This document shows, in pieces, positions 50,094-62,697 of a DNA stretch of 64,000 nt (its first letter is position 1; each line of letters starts with the position of its first letter). A model generated the notes under the pieces. The model worked only from the letters and a program-made list of their open reading frames with translations. It did no database searches and was not told where the DNA came from. The stretch is from Terriglobia bacterium (GTDB lineage: Bacteria; Acidobacteriota; Terriglobia; 20CM-2-55-15). A program made the position numbers and the translations under genes. The stretch spans positions 224,001-288,000 of the forward strand of contig CBDCLE010000002.1 of NCBI GenBank assembly GCA_965218585.1. Reading direction: 5' to 3'.

Positions 50094-53000
50094 TTATTCG
50101 TCTTCGTTCAGCTTGCGCACCTGATGGTTGGACCCACCTGAGACAAAGAGCTGCGTACCGTCGCCCCAGATCGTCTGTGGACTATTGAAGCCGGGCGCTG
50201 GAGCCGGAACCAACGGCAACAAAACCGGCGTTGCCGGCAGAACCGGCAGGAGTAATGACGGCTGCACTGGAAATCGCAACCTGTCGGATGACATGATTAG
50301 ACAGATCCACAACATACAGATTCGTCCCGTCGCCCCAGACACTGTGTGGGAAATTAAACTTGGCTCCGGTTCCCGTTCCGTTATTCGATCCGGACGTGCC
50401 GGACACGCCGGCAAACGTTGTTACGGCTTGATTGGAAATGACGATCTTCCGGATCGTGTGATTCCCGCCCTCGGTCACGTAGAGGTTCGTGTTGTCGCCC
50501 CAGATGCCGAGCGGGAGGTTGAAGAGCGCGGATGTACCGCTGGCATCGGTCGATCCGCTTGTGCCGGACTGGCCCGCAAACGTCGTTACGACTCCGGAAG
50601 ATACGACGATCTTGCGGATTGAGTGATTGTCCTTGTCGGCAATATAGAGTGTCGCTGCATCACCCCAAAGCGCGTGTGGAGCATTGAAGAAAGCAGCCGT
50701 CCCCGTACCGTCGGTGGTTCCTGAAGTTCCCGCGGTTCCGGCCAGAGTCGTCACGACTCCGGTCGAAATCACGATCTTTCGTATCGTGTGATTCCCCGTG
50801 TCGGTTGCGTAGAGATTACCCAGGCCATCTCCCCACAGGCCTTCCGGAAAACTGAATCTAGCCGCTGAACCCGTCCCGTCCGTCGTTCCGGAGCTACCCG
50901 CCGTCCCGGCCAGCGTCGTCGTGGCACCACCCGATATCACGATCTTGCGGATCGTGTGGTTGTTGGTATCCGAAACGTAGAGGTTGCCCTGACCGTCGCC
51001 CCACGTTCCACCCGGGAACTTGAATCGAGCCTTATCACCGGACGCGTCCGTCGAACCACTCTTGGGATTCGGGCTCCCGGCCAGCGTCGTGAAGGAAACC
51101 GAGGTGAGATCGGTTTGTCGTATCGCATGATTGAGCTGTTCCGTGACGTAGAGCTTGTTGCCGGCGCCGAAGAGATAGCTGGGATTGTCGAATTGCACCG
51201 TGCTGGCGTTGCCGTTGACGAAGCCGGCACTCCCAGTGCCCGCGAACGTCGATACAGTAGCCGACGAGATTACAATCTTCCGGATCACGTCGTTTCCAGT
51301 GCCAGCGACGAAGAGATTTCCGGAACCGTCGTACCAGATCCCCCCTAGAGATCTAAATTGGGCCGTCGCGCCGACACCCTCGACGTAACCGCCGGAGGGT
51401 GAGAATGATCCAGCCACAGACGTCACTTCAGTGGTCGAGATGACGATCTTCCGGATCTTCTTGTTCCCGGAGTCCGCAATGTACAGATTGCCCGCCCCGT
51501 CACCTGTCACGCCGGCCACGAAATTGAACTTCGCGGAAGTCCCGGTAATATTATCGACTTCACCCTGCGAGGAACCCGCCAGCGTCGTCACCGTTGCCGT
51601 CGAAATTACAATCTGGCGGATCAGATAGTTGTTACCGTCAGCGATAAAGAGATTGCCGGTGTCGTCACCCCAGAGCCCCTGTGGGAAGCGGAACTGCGCC
51701 GAAGCTCCAACCCCGTTTCCGCTGCCGGCACTCCCCGAGCCGGCCAGCGTCGTCACGACGCCGGTCGAGATTACGACCTTCCGGACGGCGTGGTTATCTT
51801 TATCCACGACGTAGAGGTTGCCGGACCCGTCGCCCCAAACACCGGTCGGTTGGTTGAACCGGGCTGCAGAGCCCGTATCGTTGACTAACCCTGTTTGACC
51901 CGGTGAACCCGCCAGCGTCGTGACCACGCCTGACGAAATCACAACCTTGCGAATCGTGTGGTTGAATTTGTCCGCGACATAAAGGTTCGTGCTGTCGGCC
52001 CAGACACCGGCCGGCTGGTTAAACGCTGCCGTCGGTCCCGTCCCGTCTTCACTGCCGAAGCCCTTGCTGCCCGCCAGCGTCTCCACCTGAAATGTGCCGG
52101 CGCTGGCGATCGCGCTGGAATTGATCGTGAAGTTGGATGTGTTACTCGAGCCCGAAGTCGTGACCGAGACGGTTCGGGTACCGGTGGCACCACTCAGGAT
52201 CAGTACGGCTGTGATCTGCGTCGCGGAGTCGATCGTAAAACCGGAAACGTAGGCACCTGTTCCGCTGACATTGACCGCGGTCCCTGAGAAGTTTGTGCCT
52301 GTGATCGTGACCGGAACGGTGGCGCCCTGTTTGCCGGATGTCGGACTGATGCTGGTGATCGTGGGGGCGGCAAGCACAACCGTGAACGTCTGCGACCCAC
52401 TTGTTCCGGCTCCCGTTGTGACGGTCACCGTGCGGCCACTGAGTGTCGCTCCGCTGCCAACCGTGAACGTCGCTGTCAGCGAGGTCGTACTCGTTACATT
52501 CACACTCGATACCGCCACGTCAGAACCGGACACTGCTACGGTCGTACCCCCCGAAACAAAACCTGTTCCGGTCAGTGTGACGGCCACGGCCGCTCCCCGT
52601 GCTCCCGAACTCGGACTGACGCTGGTCAATGTCGGTGTGCCGGTGACGACCACAGTCCTCGTAACAGCTAAGATCTGGGTACTCGGATTTGCTTTCTCGA
52701 AGATGAATCCGTTCGGAATCGTGTTCGTACCGTCATGAACGGTCGGCTGCGGTGTGGGAGTCAGGGCGCCGGTGCCGCTCTGAAGGCCGGAATTGTCGAC
52801 CCAGCCGGAAAACGCCGTAACTTCGTTCGTCGACATCCGCATGCGACGAATCACATGGTTGCGGTCATCCACAATGTAGAGATACGTCGCGTCGCCAAAG
52901 ATCGCGTTGGGGAAATCGAACCTTGCTACAGTGCCCACGCCGTCCGCAAAACCGCTGGTTCCTTTCAGACCGGCCAACGTCGTCACAGCGCCGGTCGCAA

Positions 53001-56000
53001 TGACGACCTTCCGGATCGCGTGGTTCCCCACCTCGGAGACGTACAGGTTCCCATCACCATCACCCCACAGGCCTCTGGGCCGATCCAACCCGGCCGCTCC
53101 GCCCGTTCCGTCTGCCGTCCCCGATGTCGCCGACCCCGCCAGCGTCGTAACAGCACCAGTCGAAATCACGATCTTTCGAATCGAGGCGTTCGTATCCTCA
53201 CCGACGTAGAGATTGCCGGCGTCATCGCCCCAAACACCCCATGGCTCGTGGAAGCGGGCCACCGCTCCGGTGTCGTTGACCAAGCCCGTGGCACCGAACG
53301 TCCCGGCCAAAGTCGTGACCACTCCGGTTGAAATCACGATCTTCCGGATCACATGGTTCCCGGCATCGGCCACATACAGATTGCCCGACGTGTCACCCCA
53401 GATGCCACCCAGCTCCCCGAAACGCGCGGCGGTTCCTGTGGCGTTGACCATTCCGCTAGTTCCCTTGAGCTCCGCAATCGTCGTGACCTCACCCGTCGCG
53501 ATGACGACCTTCCGGATTGCGAAGTTGTTCCGCTCGGCCACGTACAGGTTGCCGTTGCCATCTCCCCAGATCCCCGCCGTCTCATCGAATCGGGCGGCTA
53601 AACCGGTCCCGTCTGCGGTCCCCGAGATGCCGTTTCCAGCAAGTGTTGTCACGCGACCCGTCGACAGGGAGATCTGACGCACCGTATGGTTCTCCCGCGA
53701 CGTGGTGTAGAGGTTCGTCCCGTCGCTCCAAACACCATGGGGCCTTTCGTACTTCGGAACGTCGGGTGAGACGCCAACCCAGAAATCGGATTCGGTTGTC
53801 GAAACTTCGTTGTTGATATTGACGTAGCGATACTGAATCGCCCCAGTCGAGAACAGGACGATCTGGAAGGTACTCAGTCCTCCGAGTGAAGTCTTGCCAA
53901 AAAGCCCCATCTTCTCGTAAGTGATTGCGAACGCCTGCGTCCCACCCACGGTCAGGGAGTTCGTAAAGACCTTGCTCCCGGACACGATATAAAGATCTGT
54001 CGCCAGGGCGGAGATACGCGCACGTGAAAGGAAAGTGCTTTCACTGAAGTTAAACGTGCTGTCGCCGCTACCAAACGTCAGGTTGCCATTGATGTTGACG
54101 TAGAGAGAACTGTGATTCGTCCCGAAGAACGGGAAAGAGAACGGCAGAGCTGGCGTCGTGGCCGAACCGACCAATTGTGTCCCATCGTCGACCGATCCAC
54201 TGAACGTGAGGTTTGTTCCGGACGTCTGCTGCGCGACGGTCGTGGGCACGCTCACTCCAGACGGGACGAAGTTGAGAACCTCTCCGTTCAGGAGCGATGG
54301 AGCCCGGGGACCAGCCACGGTCAGCGTTGTTGAACCTACTGCAAGTGCTGAGAGCGTTCCTGTCGTCGTAAGGCTCCCACTCGAGAACTCCAGACTCGAT
54401 CCAACGCTTGCAATGCCAGTAGCCGCCGTGCTCGCACCGATTTCCAGTTCGGCACTTTCCGTGTCGCTCGATCGGGTCACAGTAAACGAGGTCGACCCTC
54501 CCTGCGGAATCGTGATCGTACCGGACAGCGTCACACTTATCGTGCCGAAAGCACTTATCACAACCAGGGGGCCCGAGATTGTTGAAACTCCGGATGTCGA
54601 AGCGCTGATAGTTGTTGTTCCTGCAACAAGGCCGCGGATGGTCGCTATCGTTGAAAGACTGCCAGCTGGAATCTGTACCGTCGTCGAACTCACGGTAGAA
54701 CCACCGACCAGGAAACCTGCGTTAGTCGGCGCACTGGAAGTCAGCGTAACCGACGTTGCAGCCGTCCGAACATTGTTGATACTGACGCTGACCGCAGAAT
54801 TCGTGCTGACAAGGATGGTCCCAAACCCGGAAAGGGACAGACTATCTGGGTCCGTGGTACTACCGGTCGTAAACGAGAAGGAATCGGAGCCCCCACCGCC
54901 ACCGGTTGAGGGTGGATTGGTGACACTCAGCGTGTGGGAGCCGTCCTTGTTGCCGTCCGTCGGTACTGTGAACTGTATGGTCGTGCTGGTGACACGCGTC
55001 GGTACGATCGCACGTCCATCCAGGGTCAACTGCAGGGTCGGCAAGAAACCGGTACCCGTGATCGTGACCGTATCGCCGTCGCTCACCGTGTCCGGATCCG
55101 TGATCGACGTGATGTCCGGGACCGGAGCCGCTGCCTGAAGTACGGTCAGCAGCAACCCGTTCGAATCCGGTGCCCCCGGACTGGCCACTGTGATCTCATA
55201 GGTCCCGGCAATCAAAAGCCCAAAGAAGGTGCCGCCGAGAGACGTCGGCCCGTTGAACCGGGTGGGAAGCGCCACCCCGTCGATCAGGATCTCGGAACCG
55301 TCAACGAAGTTCTCTCCCCCCACGTCTATGGTCTGGACTGCGCCTTCGAGAGCTCTTTCCGGTGACAGTGAAGTCAGGACCGGAGCCGCATTCGTCACCG
55401 TGAACATCACGTCGTTGGAGGTGCCTCCACCCGGCACCGGATTCGTCACCGTGATCATGTGCTCGCCGGCCGCTGTTCCTCGGGGCACGGTCACCTCGAT
55501 CGTGGTTGCATCCAGATAACGCCCATCACCCAGCGACACCGTCGAGGTCGGGATGAATCCGCTCCCGGTCAGTGTGAGGGTGACCGGTAACTGGTCGACC
55601 CGTGCCGCCACCCGGTCGATCGCCTCGATCACCGGTACCGGGTTGCCGATGGCGAACGAGAGAGCATTCGAGATCCCCCCTCCCGGGGCCGGCGTGACCA
55701 CCGTCACTGCCAGGGTCCCGGCCACGGTGACCCCAAGTGAGGTCGGGCTACCCAGCGTCAGGGCCGTCACCGCCGCATCTCCCACACTGAAGATGAGCGT
55801 CCCCGAATCCACGAACGTCGTCTCGGTCCGACTCCCATCGATGTGTACGACCGAAGTGGGCAGGAATCCACTACCGGATACGGTCACCTCTACAGGCAAC
55901 TCGGCCAGACTGACTCTTGAGGGTGACAGGTCGGACAGTTCCGGCACCGGGTTCCTCACCAGCAGCGTGCCGCCGCCGGCCTCCCCCCCGCCCGGTGGCG

Positions 56001-58710
56001 GCGTGAACACTCCGATCCCAAACTCGCCCGGCACCCTGAGCAGCGCCGACGGGATCTGACCGCTCAACTCGGTGTTACTGATAAAGTCGGTCCCAATCCG
56101 GGTCCCGGCCACCGTGATCACCGAACTGGCCTGGAAGTTGGCCCCTGTCACCGTTATGTCTGTGGCCACACCCACACCGGCTTCTGACGGACTGAAACCG
56201 GTAATCTGGGGCGGGGCCGTCAATACGCTGATCGAGAACGAGGCCGCCCCGCCTCCCGGTGTCGGGTTCGCAATCACACCGGACAATGTCCCCGGCACCT
56301 GCAACAGGTCTGCCGGAATACTGGCATCGATCGACGTCGAGGTGATCGATGCGTTCAGGGTCTGACCCCCAAGGGACACTTCCGTCTCGGGTATGAAGCC
56401 TTCGCCGCCGATCGACAACCCTGCGACACCGTGTTCTGTCCCCGGTTCGTTACCACCGCGATCCCGGTCACCGAGTTCACCGCCACTCCTGCTGGCCGGC
56501 TCCCGACCTGGATCGTGCCCGTCACCGTCAATGTGTTCAGATCGATCACGCTGACCGTCGCGTCTTCTCCGCTCACCACCACGGCCAGGTTCCGCGTCTG
56601 ATCGATGGCCAGTCCCAGCGGGAACCGCCCCACCTCCACCGTTGCGGTCACCGTCATCGTCGCCAGATCGATCACGCTCACGTCGTTGCTGCCTACGTTG
56701 GCCACCAGCGCCAGGTCCAGCTCTGCGTGGATATCCACACCTTCGCCCGGGCTCCGGCCCACCGTGATCGTCTCGGTCACCGTCAGAGTGTTCAGATCGA
56801 TCACGCTCACGTTGTCGCTGGACTCATTGCTCACCACTGCGATCTGCCGCGTCGGATGGATGGCCACTCCGGCCGGAAACGATCCCACCGATACCCGCCC
56901 TTCGATCAACGGGTTGTCCGGCTCCGGGTTCACCACAAACACCGATGCACTGGTGGTCCCCCCGCCCGGCGGCGGCGTGGTCACCGTAATCTGGGCATCA
57001 CCAATCTGGCTGAGCAGTGTGGACGGGATCACCGCCTGCAGCTCGACCGAGCTGACAAACGTGGTCTGCAGGGACTCGCCGTTGAACTGGACTACCGAGG
57101 CCGGGTTGAACTCCGACCCCAACACGGTGATGTTCAACAACTGGTTCCCCGAGAATGCCGACGAGGGCGACACAAAGCTCAAACCCGGCACCTCGGAGGG
57201 CACCACCCCGCCGGCCTGGAAGTCCTGACCGTCCACATTCTCGGTGGCCAGCTCTACGGTCCGTTCCGCTGGCACCAACTGCGCACCAATCCGGCTGGCC
57301 GTTACTGTGTAACTGCCGGGTGGCAGCTGCCCGAATATGTACCGTCCGTCTGCATCCGTGGTCCGGGTCTGGGTCACTGGGCCCGCAAGCGACACCGTCA
57401 CATCGGCTACACCCACGCCGTCCTGGGTCACACGGCCCGTGATCGCCGCTGCGATCTGGGCCGGGGGGATAAAGTCTGTCGCGATGTTCTCGGCTGGTAC
57501 ATTGGCCAGAGCAAAACCGTTGATCCCTCCAAACAGCGCCGCACTGACCACATCGACACTCGATCGCAGGTAGGCCCAGCCTCCTACCTGTTCCAGCGCT
57601 GCCGTCAGTAACTCCCGGTACAACCGGCCAATCCGTCCATTAGCCGGCACGGTGAACGTGGCCTTCCCCACCGTCGTCCCGTCCGGCAGCAAGGTGAAAA
57701 ACTCTACTTCCGCATCGGTCTCACCCGGGTTCACGATCGTCAGGCCCGTAAAGAAGCCGCTCCCCTCGGCTACCTGCGAATACACCTGAAGGCGCGATGC
57801 GCGTTCGGTCTCCGTCCCCGATACCAGTGCAAACGATGGGGTCGTCTGGTTCCCGAACCCGATATACGACGTCACAAACCCTACGGGCGTTGTGATATCG
57901 ATCCAACCCACACTCAGCTACGTGTCGTCCGTGATCGCAAACAGCTCGGCCACTGTCCCCCGCCAGCTCGCGTTCGCTCCCAGCGTGATCGTCTTCGGGT
58001 TCTCGGGCAGATCCCACAACGTCCCGTCGTCCTTCTTCGCCGTCAGCACCAGGTCCTGCGTGGTCTGCGCCGTGTTCACCAGCCCGATGAAGGACAGCCA
58101 GCCGGCACCACTGACAAACTGCGACAGGATCTGGCGCGTCGACTCGGTCGGTACCCGTCCTCCGGCCGCGATCGTCTCCCGTCTCAGTGCGGTCCCTGTG
58201 ACCTGGAAGTCCACCACCACTTCGTGTGCTACCAGGGCCCGGTCTCCGGTCACCACGACGTGGGAGGCTGTACTGAGGTCCGCTTCAGCAAACAATCCGG
58301 TCAGCGTTTGTCGCAGCAGGGCCTTCGGCTCCAAAGACACGCTGACCGTCCCCAGCTGGCTCCCGTCCATCCCGTACAGCGTCAGCGTCGCCGTCGCCGC
58401 TTCCTCCCCTGGGTTTACCACTGTCAGCTCGGTCTTTGCTGTCGCATCTTCCACCGCAAACGGCAGCACGTACTCCACCTCCGCCGAAAGCGCGATGGCG
58501 CCATCTAAATCCGTCACCGCAGGGTTCGCGTTCAGGAAAAACCCCGTCAATCCCCTCGTCGCCGAGGTCGCCTGCATCCACCCGTTGAACTCACCTGCGC
58601 CGAACAGTTCCGCATACAGCCGCGACAGCTGCCCGCCCGCGGCCACCTCCACCGTCAGCGGGTTCTCCACTCCTGTCCCGGCCACCAAGGTTCCATCCGA
58701 CCTATACGCG
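50094..58710 (-). pseudogene. Giant surface protein (IPT/TIG, YVTN, NIDO-like and NHL-like propellers), 5'-truncated by IS110 and broken internally
   Basis: Co-linear ORFs 57918-58710, 56355-57911, 50182-56418 and tail 50094-50190; in-frame TAG at 57918-57920; frame break near 56420; about 2900 codons remain. Confidence 0.8.
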
Positions 58711-58715
58711 TTTCT

Positions 58716-59098
58716 ATGGAAGGGGCTGTCAAGAGAAACACGTCCCCGCCGAGCGGACCACCGGACCCAACACTGTCGTGGCAGCCAGCCCCTGTCTCCG
58801 TTGAGACGAACTGTTGATCCGGCATCGCAGAGAAGTCGATCACTCATCACAACGTGGTGTGGTTTCGAGAAACTGAAAAGCGCAAAGGGGTCGTGATTGC
58901 CGACCACGGTTCTATCTGAGCCTCGAGGGCTATCGCTTTTCCAGGTCGTGCGAGGGGGGATAGAGTATTACATGGGCCTTCAGCAAGCGCTGTGTGCCAA
59001 CCGCGTATCGGATCCTCACCCTCGACCCTACCGTTCCGACGCCTCACCGACGACGAGCGGTCGAATGCCTCGCGCTGTCGGCAGAAGTCTGGAAACGG
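58716..59098 (-). ncRNA. Candidate IS110 bridge/seek RNA
   Basis: Long non-coding end with internal-loop stems and segments matching the element end and the flank (see findings). Confidence 0.55.
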
Positions 59099-60160
59099 CT
59101 ATGTCGCCAAGTTCAGTTTCTTTGCGTTAAACGTGTCTCCTTTCTTCCACATCTTCAGTGCGGTCGCTGCAATCTTCCTCGCCAGTGTCAGCCGAGCCAT
59201 CTCCTTACGCTTGCCGTCTTTCTGGAGCCCCTCCAGGTAGCTTTTCCAAGGTTCGGCCCCCATGCCTCCGGTCGCCGCCCCGATGAACACACCTTTCAAA
59301 CGTCGGTTGCCGTTGCGGTTCAGTCCCCGCGTGGCGATCGGCTTTCGACGACGTACCACACGACTCCCTTCCTGCTCATACTCCGCACTCATGTGCATTG
59401 CCACGGCCAGACCGCTGTAGTTCCAGAGCTGGCGTTTGGTTCGAAATCGATGCGGGGTGTCCCCCGTCGCTACAATCAAGGCGCAACGTATCGGTCCCAA
59501 CTGGGGAATCGTCTGCAATATCCCCACCGCACGATGCTTGCGGCTCTCGGTTAACATCGCCAGCTTCGCTTTTTTTCTTAACCCTCTCAGATGATCCAGC
59601 TCCTCATACAACCATCCGGTACGCCGCCGTGCACCGGTATTGGCGAGCTGTTCGATCCAGTGTTCCCGCTGCGATGGGAGGTAGACGCCGTGGCCCGGCG
59701 TCCGGATCCCACGTCCTCGATACATTGCCTTGATCCGAACCATCGTCCGCTGCGTATCCAGGGTCAAGGTCTCATATCCGCGGACCAGTTCTTTCAACGT
59801 CCGCGTCGCATCGTGCCCGTGGTAGACCGACCGCAGCCATCCGGCCCGGAGCAGCTCGGCCAGTTTCAGGGCATCCACCCGGTCGGTCTTGGACCCGTCA
59901 CTGAGCAGTTTGTTCCGTCTGGGATCACACACGATCACTTCGCTCACATATCCCCGGACCACGTTGTAGAGCCATTCGGCCTGCGTGGTTTCTTCAAACG
60001 TCACGTGCAGCTCACCACTCAGACTCTCCAGCAAATCAATGATTGGCCCGGCCTGGGTCTCTACGATCTTTTCCCAGACCAGTTTGCCGTCTGCGTTTAA
60101 GACCATCACCACCGTCGTTGCCTGGTGCACATCCATGCCGATATACTTGGCCTGTTTCAT
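59099..60160 (-). CDS. IS110-family recombinase/transposase
   Basis: YIGMDVH, VTFEE and KTDRVDA (DEDD RuvC-like); C-terminal TIPQLGP, RF, SA, GNRRLK, LARK. Confidence 0.92.
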   Translation of the reverse strand: MKQAKYIGMDVHQATTVVMVLNADGKLVWEKIVETQAGPIIDLLESLSGELHVTFEETTQAEWLYNVVRGYVSEVIVCDPRRNKLLSDGSKTDRVDALKLAELLRAGWLRSVYHGHDATRTLKELVRGYETLTLDTQRTMVRIKAMYRGRGIRTPGHGVYLPSQREHWIEQLANTGARRRTGWLYEELDHLRGLRKKAKLAMLTESRKHRAVGILQTIPQLGPIRCALIVATGDTPHRFRTKRQLWNYSGLAVAMHMSAEYEQEGSRVVRRRKPIATRGLNRNGNRRLKGVFIGAATGGMGAEPWKSYLEGLQKDGKRKEMARLTLARKIAATALKMWKKGDTFNAKKLNLAT

Positions 60161-60359
60161 TTACGTGCTCCTTTGTCTTTGAATTCAACGCAGCTACGTT
60201 GAATGGGTTGTTGTCGGGAGATTTTCCTCCTGGCAACAGCCGACAAAGGGGCGTCCTTCCTTATAGCGTTGTATGCGCCCGCATTTGAGCGGGCCATGGT
60301 TGCGCTGACCGGGGGCCACTCAAAACAATGACGATTGAATACGAACCGATTCCTCCCGG

Positions 60360-60734: not shown

Positions 60735-61850
60735 ATGTTCAACATCAGCAGACGCCGGTTTCTGGGGGCGGCTGGCCCGTTGGCTGCCATGTCAGCCATG
60801 ACTCAAGAGGGGACAGCCGCCGCCCCCTCCGCTCAGGCCGACATTAGTGGACTGCCACGCGTCCGGCAGGAGTCGGTCGACCCGCCTTTTGTTCCCGAGC
60901 ACGAGCAGGTCGCCGCAGGCGGCCCGAAGATTATCGAGGTGGAGCTTGTCGTCCAGGAAGGCAAGAGGGTGATCGACGATGCCGGTACCGAAATCCAAGC
61001 CCTCATGTTCAACGATTCCATTCCAGGCCCTCTGATCATCTGCCACGAGGGGGACTACGTCGAGCTCACGCTGAAGAATCCGGAGGGCAATGTCTTCGGG
61101 CACAATGTCGACTTTCATGCCTCGACCGGGGCCCTGGGCGGAGGTGCCCTGACACACGTGCAACCGGGTGAACAGGTCCGGCTGCGCTGGAAGGCGGTCA
61201 AGCCGGGCACCTTCATCTATCACTGTGCGCCAGGTGGCTCGATGATTCCATACCATGTGGTTTCCGGTATGAATGGGGCCGTCATGGTGCTGCCAAGGGC
61301 CGGCCTCCAGGATCGCGATGGCACGCCCATCCGTTACGACAAAGCCTACTATGTCGGCGAGCAGGACTACTACATTCCCCGAGATTCTGACGGCAACTTC
61401 ATGAAGTACGAGGGCCCGGCGGACGGTATTGCCGATGTCCTGGAGGTGATGCGCAACCTTACGCCGACCCATGTGGTGTTCAATGGCCGGGTCGGTGCGC
61501 TGACCGGCGATGGCGCCATGAGGGCCCAGGTGGGCGAGACCGTCTTGTTCATCCACTCCCAGGCCAACCGGGATTCCAGGCCGCACCTGATCGGCGGACA
61601 TGGGGACTACGTGTGGGAACAGGGTTCATTTGCCGACCCCCCGGCTCACGGGCTTCAGACCTGGTTCGTCCGGGGCGGCTCGGCGGGCGCGGCCATCTAC
61701 ACTTTCAGGCAGCCGGGCCTCTATGCGTACCTCACCCACAACCTGATCGAGGCGGTCGAGTTGGGTGCCCTAGCCCATGTCATGGTCGATGGCGACTGGG
61801 ATAATGATCTGATGACGCAGGTTCAGGCTCCGGCGCCGATTCCGGGGTAA
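60735..61850 (+). CDS. nirK: Copper-containing nitrite reductase with Tat signal
   Basis: SRRRFL Tat motif; [31 protein letters not shown] and THNLIEA Cu ligands. Confidence 0.96.
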
Positions 61851-61870: not shown

Positions 61871-62697
61871 GGTTCTGGTGCAGACAGGCAACGGACTTGG
61901 CGATAATGGGTTATGGCGCATCAGAAAACTGAGCGGAATCCTCTATTTGCCGGACGTTGGTTCGAAGACGACATCATTCTCCTCTGCCTTCGCTGGTATT
62001 TTCGCTTCAAATTAAGTTACCGAGACCTGGGCGCGATTTTAGGTGAACGGGGTTTATCGATTTCGCACACCACGATTTTGCGTTGGGTCATTCGTTATGC
62101 TGAAACTTGCGAGAAGCGCTGGAACCGATTCGAGCGACAGGTGGGTGGGAGCTGGCGAGTTGATGAAACATTCATCAAGGTGCGAGGCCAGTTGATGTAC
62201 CTGTATCGAGCCGTGGATGGACAAGGCAACACCGTGGAGTTCTGTCTGAGTCGAACACGCGGCATTGCGGCGGCGAAGGCCTTCTTTCGCAAGGCACTGA
62301 AGCATCATCGGGAGCCACACAGCATCACCCTGGATGGCCACCAGCCGAGCCATAGCGCCCTGCGGCGCATGGGAATGAACGGTGAGTTCAACTTCCGGGG
62401 GCGGAACCCGGTGAAGATTCGTTGCTGTCAATACCTGAACAACGTTGTGGAGCAGGACCACCGCCGGGTGAAGAGGCGATTGCGCCCGATGTTGGGATTC
62501 AAGACGTTCGACAATGCGCGACGCGTCATTATCGGCATCGAACTGGCGCAGAAGATTCACAAACGCCAGTTCGCAATTCCGATCACATTGCAGTCGAATC
62601 CCGCAGTGACCTGGCGTCACGTCATGGCAGCATAGTCCGTCTCGCTGCGGCACACTCCTGGTCTTATCGCTCCGACAATCTTATCTGCACCAGAACC
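61871..62697 (+). mobile_element. IS6-family insertion sequence
   Basis: 14-bp perfect IR ggttctggtgcaga (61871-61884) / tctgcaccagaacc (62684-62697); 827 bp; no flanking duplication seen. Confidence 0.9.
61913..62635 (+). CDS. IS6-family transposase
   Basis: LSYRDL, SWRVDETFIKV, YLYRAVD, YLNNVVEQDHR, MLGFK. Confidence 0.93.
   Translation: MAHQKTERNPLFAGRWFEDDIILLCLRWYFRFKLSYRDLGAILGERGLSISHTTILRWVIRYAETCEKRWNRFERQVGGSWRVDETFIKVRGQLMYLYRAVDGQGNTVEFCLSRTRGIAAAKAFFRKALKHHREPHSITLDGHQPSHSALRRMGMNGEFNFRGRNPVKIRCCQYLNNVVEQDHRRVKRRLRPMLGFKTFDNARRVIIGIELAQKIHKRQFAIPITLQSNPAVTWRHVMAA

Follow-up and report, generated by a model that had tools for sequence, protein, structure and literature searches.

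The DNA considered here is a stretch of 64,000 nucleotides (nt) from the genome of a Terriglobia bacterium (GenBank assembly GCA_965218585.1, contig CBDCLE010000002.1, positions 224,001 to 288,000), referred to below as the window. Positions 58711-60269 of the window hold, on the minus strand, one of 16 copies of an insertion sequence of the IS110 family, IS1111 group, whose recombinase is very probably guided by an RNA from the 386-nt non-coding region downstream of its gene. This reading is built on the copies and their ends, a target consensus, a conserved RNA structure, the covariation of guides with flanks and with an element end, and the position of the crossover core in two sister elements. 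The element is a new one within the already known RNA-guided IS1111 kind and brings no new principle; the new variant of bridge recombinase announced in the original prediction, which was made from the letters of the window, is unsupported. Its value lies elsewhere: it is a well-documented RNA-guided IS1111 member from a little-studied soil lineage, and it comes with 16 insertion sites of its own, with over 30 relatives that have been retargeted in nature, and with unoccupied sites from which the core position is fixed. A natural series of this kind is useful raw material for choosing and programming recombinases guided by bridge RNAs or seekRNAs. All features of the element lie on the minus strand, and positions are those of the window.

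The element is 1,557 base pairs (bp) long, and its 16 copies in the window's genome (G000) are 99.5-100% identical; terminal positions excepted, only five sites vary among the copies in the remaining 1,555 bp. To judge from these sequences, the element is evidently active. Aligned in the sense of the transposase gene, each copy starts ..flank-ACGCTATAAGGAAGG.. and finishes ..CCTTCCATAGA, after which come AC (ten copies), AA (five, that of the window included) or GC (one) and then, in most cases, CGCGTAT. The unit common to all copies runs from 60269 to 58712/58713, and it is at these same limits, 58712/58713 and 60269, that contigs from three public sequencing runs stop. The original prediction had recognized a real element, and the 16-copy alignment corrects its bounds from 60275 and 58701 to these positions. 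Of the two non-coding regions, the one downstream of the gene is the longer (386 nt, vs 107 nt upstream), as in the IS1111 group. The left end, which is the right donor side (60161..60267, 107 nt), includes a subterminal inverted repeat, CTATAAGGAAGG (60266-60255), and a -10-like TATAAG (60265-60260). The remaining right end (58713..58860) includes a -35-like TTGACA (58732-58727) and the other subterminal inverted repeat, CCTTCCATAG (58723-58714). The two repeats, CTAT(AA)GGAAGG and CTATGGAAGG, each begin one base from the core, are conserved in relatives and fall within the 7-17 bp of the IS1111 group. Related elements keep the left end GCTATAAG(A/G)AAGG, and TCTTGACA is kept among the related right ends compared. 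The downstream non-coding region, the subterminal inverted repeats and the strand order within the predicted RNA together place the element in the IS1111 group.

The transposase, or recombinase, gene (59099..60160) encodes 353 amino acids, and both IS110-family domains of the protein score above their cut-offs. These are the N-terminal DEDD_Tnp_IS110 domain (PF01548; E-value 3.5e-17, 63.1 bits, cut-off 29) and the C-terminal Transposase_20 domain (PF02371; E-value 8.3e-09, 36.2 bits, cut-off 21.3). Together with the long non-coding end downstream of the gene and the subterminal inverted repeats, they uphold the earlier assignment to an IS110/IS1111-type element. The only matches in the PDB are the solved IS110-family recombinases ISCro4, with which the N-terminal domain aligns, and IS621, where the match is weak and confined to the N-terminal domain (E-value 3.5e-07; PDB 8wt6). 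Residues D10, E56/E57, D93, D96 and S258 are invariant across 20 homologues; S258, in the motif GL-x6-S, is the putative catalytic serine, at a position where the HMMER alignment has a gap. Homologues of at least 70% identity number in the thousands and are abundant in Terriglobia and soil metagenomes. The protein stands far from the members that have been characterised; the best plasmid-borne IS110-family match has 28% identity, and the plasmid matches are unnamed IS110-family genes. A scan of genome contigs with the single protein returned no relative; alignment-based scans did find relatives. Residues 128-289 give a weak, sub-threshold match to NF052498, “TIGR-Tas system RNA-guided endonuclease” (34.3 bits, cut-off 100).

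More than 30 related elements, found in Terriglobia genomes and in soil metagenomes, share the full length of the 386-nt downstream region at 70-86% identity, and a shorter core of it is still recognisable at about 52% protein identity. An alignment of 44 of the 48 distinct stretches (alignment A2, from which L012, L127 and L141 were omitted as near-duplicates and L071 for its aberrant length) supports a structure of seven helices, with 95.7% of 1,486 cells paired and compensatory change in 14 of the 34 pairs. In a control with the partners displaced by one to three columns, pairing fell to 36-49% of cells and compensatory change to two to five pairs. The target-binding loop (58952..59023) has two closing helices (59023-59019/58956-58952 and 59015-59012/58961-58958), an inner hairpin (58998-58975) and two unpaired strands of 13 nt; its helices 1-4 are paired in 83-100% of cells, and nine of their 16 pairs show compensatory change. 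The predicted donor-binding multiloop (58875..58951) comprises a helix at 58951-58944/58905-58899, a hairpin at 58931-58928/58922-58919 and a crossing helix at 58941-58935/58881-58875. Helices 5, 6 and 7 of this region are paired in 93-100% of cells, and five of their pairs show compensatory change. Because the helices 58951-58944/58905-58899 and 58941-58935/58881-58875 both have compensatory changes and cross each other, the region would be a multiloop, a pseudoknot or two alternative folds; helices 5 and 6 are jointly possible only as a pseudoknot. The loops are stem-bounded, as had been claimed, both in the single-sequence fold and in the 44-sequence alignment. A U-rich stretch, GCUUUUCAGUUUC, follows the crossing helix and is conserved in relatives. 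A search of Rfam gave no matching family, only two hits at chance level (E-values 1.2 and 2.7).

The two unpaired strands of the target loop are the predicted target guides. The right target guide, CCGAUACGCGGUU (5' strand of the loop, 58999..59011), is antisense to A-AC-CGCGTATCGG, that is, to the core and the right flank. The left target guide, CAUGUAAU (3' strand, 58965..58974), ends in a core-pairing AC (58966-58965) and has the same sense as the left flank and core (GTAAT-AC). In the window copy, the left target flank (LT) is TGCGGGCGCATACA (60270..60283) and the right target flank (RT) is CGCGTATAGGTCGG (58697..58710), seven of whose first eight bases match the complement of the guide. 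Across the 16 copies, the consensus is short and asymmetric, G-T-A-A-T at positions -5 to -1 on the left and CGCGTAT on the right, and the flanks have nothing in common past about 7 nt on either side.

The relatives show these guides and flanks changing together. Both anchors of the loop were recognized in 85 loci, which hold 50 distinct loops; at least 14 nt of left flank are available for 30 of these and of right flank for 36, the rest reaching contig ends. On the right side, the local score between guide and flank over 36 element types is 6.19 vs 3.62 for shuffled data, and on the left side, over 30 element types, 5.0 of 8 bases agree vs 2.45 in shuffled pairings; none of 10,000 permutations reached the observed value on either side. 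Both guides of the target loop therefore covary with their flanks. The core carried by the guide equals the core at the junction in 27 of 28 related elements, and the right target guide consistently complements the second core base only. A natural retargeting by one base is also seen: the guide AUACGCG of the window element stands beside CGCGTAT, and that of a sister of 82% protein identity, AUAAGCG, stands beside CGCTTAT, which partial copies of the sister likewise adjoin. In the 16 copies, guide matches average 3.3 of 6 and 5.9 of 8 bases as found vs 0.7 and 1.4 with the target flipped. All 16 insertions are in the orientation predicted by the guides, and insertion in either orientation, as first proposed, is unsupported. 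A resemblance between ACUCUAU in the target loop and the left junction ACGCTAT was considered and rejected, as it fails in a related family with a TC core.

The predicted left donor guide lies in the second loop region and consists of AUAGA with a core-pairing AC (58909..58915); it is sense-identical to the right end of the element. This 7-mer equals the right end and core in 29 of 32 related elements, where it takes the forms ATAGAAC (23), ATAGATC (3), ATAGGAC (2) and ATAGAGC (1). The four strings from which the two loops were first proposed are present in the window: ATAGAACCG (58915-58907), ATAGAAACG (58717-58709) and CCGATACGCG (59011-59002) on the minus strand, and CCTATACGCG (58701-58710) on the plus strand. 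When the non-coding region was shuffled by mononucleotides 5,000 times, 90 shuffles gave an 8/9 match to the end, 119 gave a 9/10 match to the flank on one strand or the other, and one gave both. Taken alone, such short matches are suggestive; it is through the 16 copies and the related elements that they become decisive. The earlier assignment of one loop to the donor and one to the target is confirmed by covariation for both, the letters of the loops in the collected homologues changing together with the ends and flanks. On the other donor side, UAGC after AAAAGC-NN was tried as a right donor guide and rejected, since NN and its neighbours vary while the left end is constant; the TC-core family, which has another left end (GCAGTAT) yet the same UAGC, also speaks against it.

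The predicted crossover dinucleotide is AC, which is non-palindromic and is found at 60269-60268 and 58712-58711. The left-junction copy (60268..60269) is AC in all 16 copies and is homologous to the single core copy in the unoccupied sites of sister elements; the right-junction copy (58711..58712) is AA in the window and varies as described above. In relatives, conservation of the right end extends to ..CATAGA-AC (or -TC in one subfamily), after which the letters vary freely, and that of the left end starts at AC-GCTATAAG or TC-GCAGTATG. Since conservation reaches AC or TC at both junctions, this is the dinucleotide shared by the two ends. Unoccupied sites bear on its position directly. In genome G001, seven TC-type copies lie in a repeated sequence with TC at both junctions, and where this sequence is unoccupied, in three copies, it reads CCTG(A/T)TAAA-TC-ATCTTGTCGG; the search pattern allowed 0-8 letters in the middle, and a reversed control found none. 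For an AC-type sister, unoccupied repeats in genomes G017 and G033 read ..GCTT(G/A)T-AC-CGCTTATCCGC at the sister's insertion point. A short core shared by both junctions is thus shown by unoccupied sites for two sister elements, and for the window element it is deduced from identical ends and from the guides.

In the proposed mechanism, a DEDD/serine recombinase would be directed by RNA from the 386-nt region downstream of its gene. The 3' strand of the target loop (58974-58965) would pair with the target's bottom strand at GTAAT and AC, and the second, multiloop region of the RNA would carry AUAGAAC (58915-58909). The circularised element, ..CATAGA-AC-GCTATAAGG.., would recombine with the target GTAAT-AC-CGCGTAT, and the product would have AC at both junctions, no other duplication and a fixed orientation. 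The joining of the ends would also make a promoter composed of TTGACA, an 18-nt spacer and TATAAG. Production and binding of the RNA, formation of the circle and the junction promoter are all predicted steps of this mechanism.

The original prediction had placed the crossover elsewhere, at a self-complementary CG (60268-60267 and 58710-58709) that would allow insertion in either orientation, inversion or deletion; the circle junction would then read ..ATAGAAC-CG-CTATAAGG... The CG reported at both boundaries is there as letters, adjoining both ends of the shared sequence in most copies, and ATACGCGTAT would then be perfectly palindromic. In 9 of the 16 copies, moreover, the right junction, CG included, matches the 9-mer ATAGAACCG of the loop exactly (9/9). 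However, the unoccupied sites of the two sister families hold one copy of a dinucleotide two bases inward (TC and AC, respectively), and the AC-family empty site TGTACCGCTTATCC has one C more than a CG crossover predicts. The sequence to which the target loop's 5' strand is antisense, AACCGCG, contains two Cs, and of 32 related elements only 8 have a flank that agrees with the CG following AUAGAAC in the donor loop. Relatives differ in the letters after ..CATAGAAC (CG, CA, CT, AG, GC, TA, TT and others), which are therefore flank, and all 16 insertions have one orientation. A CG crossover is contradicted by these data and very improbable, and the palindromic core that had made the element attractive is refuted in favour of AC, read from the unoccupied sites of the sisters and from the guides.

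Two other explanations concern the guides themselves. The target loop might be the sole guide, a seekRNA in the narrow sense, with the protein reading the element ends through the inverted repeats and AUAGAAC covarying as a protein site or through homogenisation. This is unlikely, although an 82-nt seekRNA of ISEc11 with target matches alone supported transposition in the account of Siddiquee et al. 2024 (PMC11187229), the subterminal inverted repeats exist, and a right donor guide was not found here. In 29 of 32 elements, the 7-mer follows the right end through four variants, the unpaired strand that holds it is flanked by covarying helices, and the geometry of the 7-mer mirrors that of the left target guide (3' strand, sense, core at the end); donor-binding nucleotides in a multiloop are also what published predictions describe for IS1111 elements. 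More radically, the agreement between guides and flanks might be coincidence or a product of insertion into a shared repeat, the protein itself picking the target. Every single match is short, and several related elements target similar CCCCG-rich sequences and hence are non-independent. Yet flanks unrelated to one another each match their own loop (on the left, for example, GAGAA, TCCGA, AACTG, GATAG and TTCAA), the permutations never reach this agreement, and the 16 copies share nothing beyond the few bases nearest the junctions; mere coincidence is extremely improbable.

Several observations count against the reading preferred here, that of a recombinase guided by both RNA loops. The permutation tests treat related elements as independent and thereby overstate their independence, with the flanks concerned plainly unrelated to each other. 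Matches of the left guide to the flank are weak in several copies, and the window copy has two of the six nearest bases. A right donor guide was sought in the related elements and none could be assigned; candidate letters fail to vary in step with the left end, and helix 6 takes up part of the candidate strand. The inverted repeat alone is non-significant, its score being reached in 160 of 2,000 shuffles. Single-sequence folds are no stabler than those of shuffles (z = +1.97 and +1.48), and minimum-free-energy stability was therefore left out as evidence. The NCBIfam equivalog NF033542, “IS110 family RNA-guided transposase”, matches the protein over its full length (129.2 bits, E-value 1.9e-37) and misses its cut-off of 140 by 11 bits; by this yardstick, the transposase reads as a divergent IS110 member. 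The element's own RNA was not found in public runs. One RNA library has contigs of a 90-95% identical relative that span 58712-59111 and parts of the gene; these may be DNA carry-over and are no demonstration of transcription.

The core of the window element itself is also more indirectly placed than that of its sisters. Neither a circle junction nor an empty site of its own 16 copies was found when the two flanks were sought in five relatives and in public runs, the latter listing no joint of either kind, and AC as its core rests on the homology of the ends, the guides and ACCGCG sites in two relatives. In the empty-site search, only one flank of each copy is conserved; the projected site reads ACCGCG (genomes G001 and G003) or GCCCCG (genome G002), and ACCGCG fits a predicted AC core without proving it. 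Removal of the element in silico left no frame open across the site under any model and is uninformative. The two flanks of the window copy match different relatives, never one relative jointly, which marks this as a variable region.

In general, the predicted element conforms to what has been published on its kind. Bridge RNAs, as described in Durrant et al. 2024 (PMC11208160), pair their left guides with the bottom strand and their right guides with the top strand, with the core lying within the pairings. The match on the opposite strand that the original prediction found remarkable is present and is not unusual, as one antisense and one sense guide are the published rule. The same account gives a predicted bridge RNA in the right end for 93% of IS1111 elements, often with the donor nucleotides in a multiloop. 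For IS1111 elements, Siddiquee et al. 2024 (PMC11187229) describe a non-coding region downstream of the gene, a seekRNA whose top-strand complement lies 5' of the bottom-strand complement, the natural retargeting of close relatives and, for ISEc11 and ISEc21, a junction promoter. The window element has the same order of complements in its predicted RNA, and each of the published points compared fits it.

Like the seekRNA elements ISEc11, ISKpn4, ISPst6 and ISPa11, as far as the published passages compared describe them, the window element has a long downstream non-coding region, subterminal inverted repeats and a transposase of about 340-350 amino acids. It also shares with them two short target matches that overlap at the insertion point in the same strand order, natural retargeting, no duplication past the shared bases and a circle junction that, by prediction here, would form a promoter. 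It differs in its acidobacterial host (Terriglobia) and in a second loop with a donor guide, supported here by covariation, whereas the passages of Siddiquee et al. 2024 compared give the longer RNA no role. With the bridge RNA system of IS621, as presented in the parts consulted of Durrant et al. 2024 (PMC11208160) and Hiraizumi et al. 2024 and 2026 (PDB 8wt6), it has in common a DEDD and serine recombinase, two RNA loops, left guides to the bottom strand and right guides to the top, and orientation-specific insertion. In contrast to IS621, the predicted RNA of the window element lies in the right end rather than the left, in the loop the guides stand in the reverse order, the core is AC where that of IS621 is CT, and the donor guide is in a multiloop; no right donor guide was found in it, and its right target guide complements the second core base only.

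The two copies of the core in the 16 insertions are uneven. The right-junction core is other than AC in six of 16 copies (five AA and one GC), and the left-junction core is always AC. The AA copies carry both alleles at 58764 and do not group cleanly into one lineage on the remaining variable sites; copies 1 and 4, which both have G at 59292, differ at the core. The core changes occur in copies that are unlike elsewhere in the element and therefore arose several times. The right-junction cores of 11 further full or partial relatives are all as expected (ten AC, one TC), so that the variation is peculiar to the copies of the window genome; these relatives give no insight into AA. Two relatives carry C at the position orthologous to that of one AA copy, which speaks weakly against an origin of AA in the target. 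A single copy (C1:69266) is without the first C of the right flank. It is conceivable, if rather doubtful, that the two non-equivalent core copies record how an IS1111-type recombinase resolves mismatched cores. One junction could take the core of the target and the other that of the donor; alternatively, a single pair of strands could be exchanged, with replication fixing the remainder. If this were true, donor and target cores would not need to match at both bases, and the uneven copies would be a concrete handle on the resolution of mismatched cores.

The sister elements occupy repeated surroundings. The AC-type sister (L011:1100-1888; loci L153-L162) is found in genomes G007 and G017 directly at the end of a repeated sequence, about 790 nt long, of which each genome has several copies. 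Roughly the final 90 nt of this repeat occur dozens of times in Terriglobia genomes (G001, G006, G007, G017, G032 and G033). The end of the repeat carries the target ..GCTTGT-AC-CGCTTATCCGC, and unoccupied copies have AC, AT, TT or TC at the core position. Some IS1111 elements target the ends of other mobile elements, and IS4321/IS5075 reportedly belong to the IS1111 family. The position of the 82%-identical sister (L011) at the end of a repeated Terriglobia sequence recalls such elements; the window element differs in targeting a short unique motif and not a repeat. The TC-core sister (68% DNA identity) has seven copies in genome G001 (L125-L131) and eight in genome G002 (L132-L139), which belong to the same genus. 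Its ends read TC-GCAGTATG.. and ..CATAGA-TC, and in G001 it is inserted only into one repeated sequence.

Around the window copy, an IS6-family transposase gene (61913-62635, plus strand; NF033587, 223 bits) lies 1.6 kilobases from the element, and a gene for a copper-containing nitrite reductase (60735-61850; TIGR02376, 476 bits) lies between the two. On the other side of the element, an open reading frame of 2,078 amino acids (50182-56418, minus strand) has IPT/TIG and many NHL repeats, and it is followed by a 518-amino-acid protein with a carboxypeptidase-regulatory-like domain (56355-57911). The next gene in the row (57918 to about 58690) starts at the element or shortly downstream of it.

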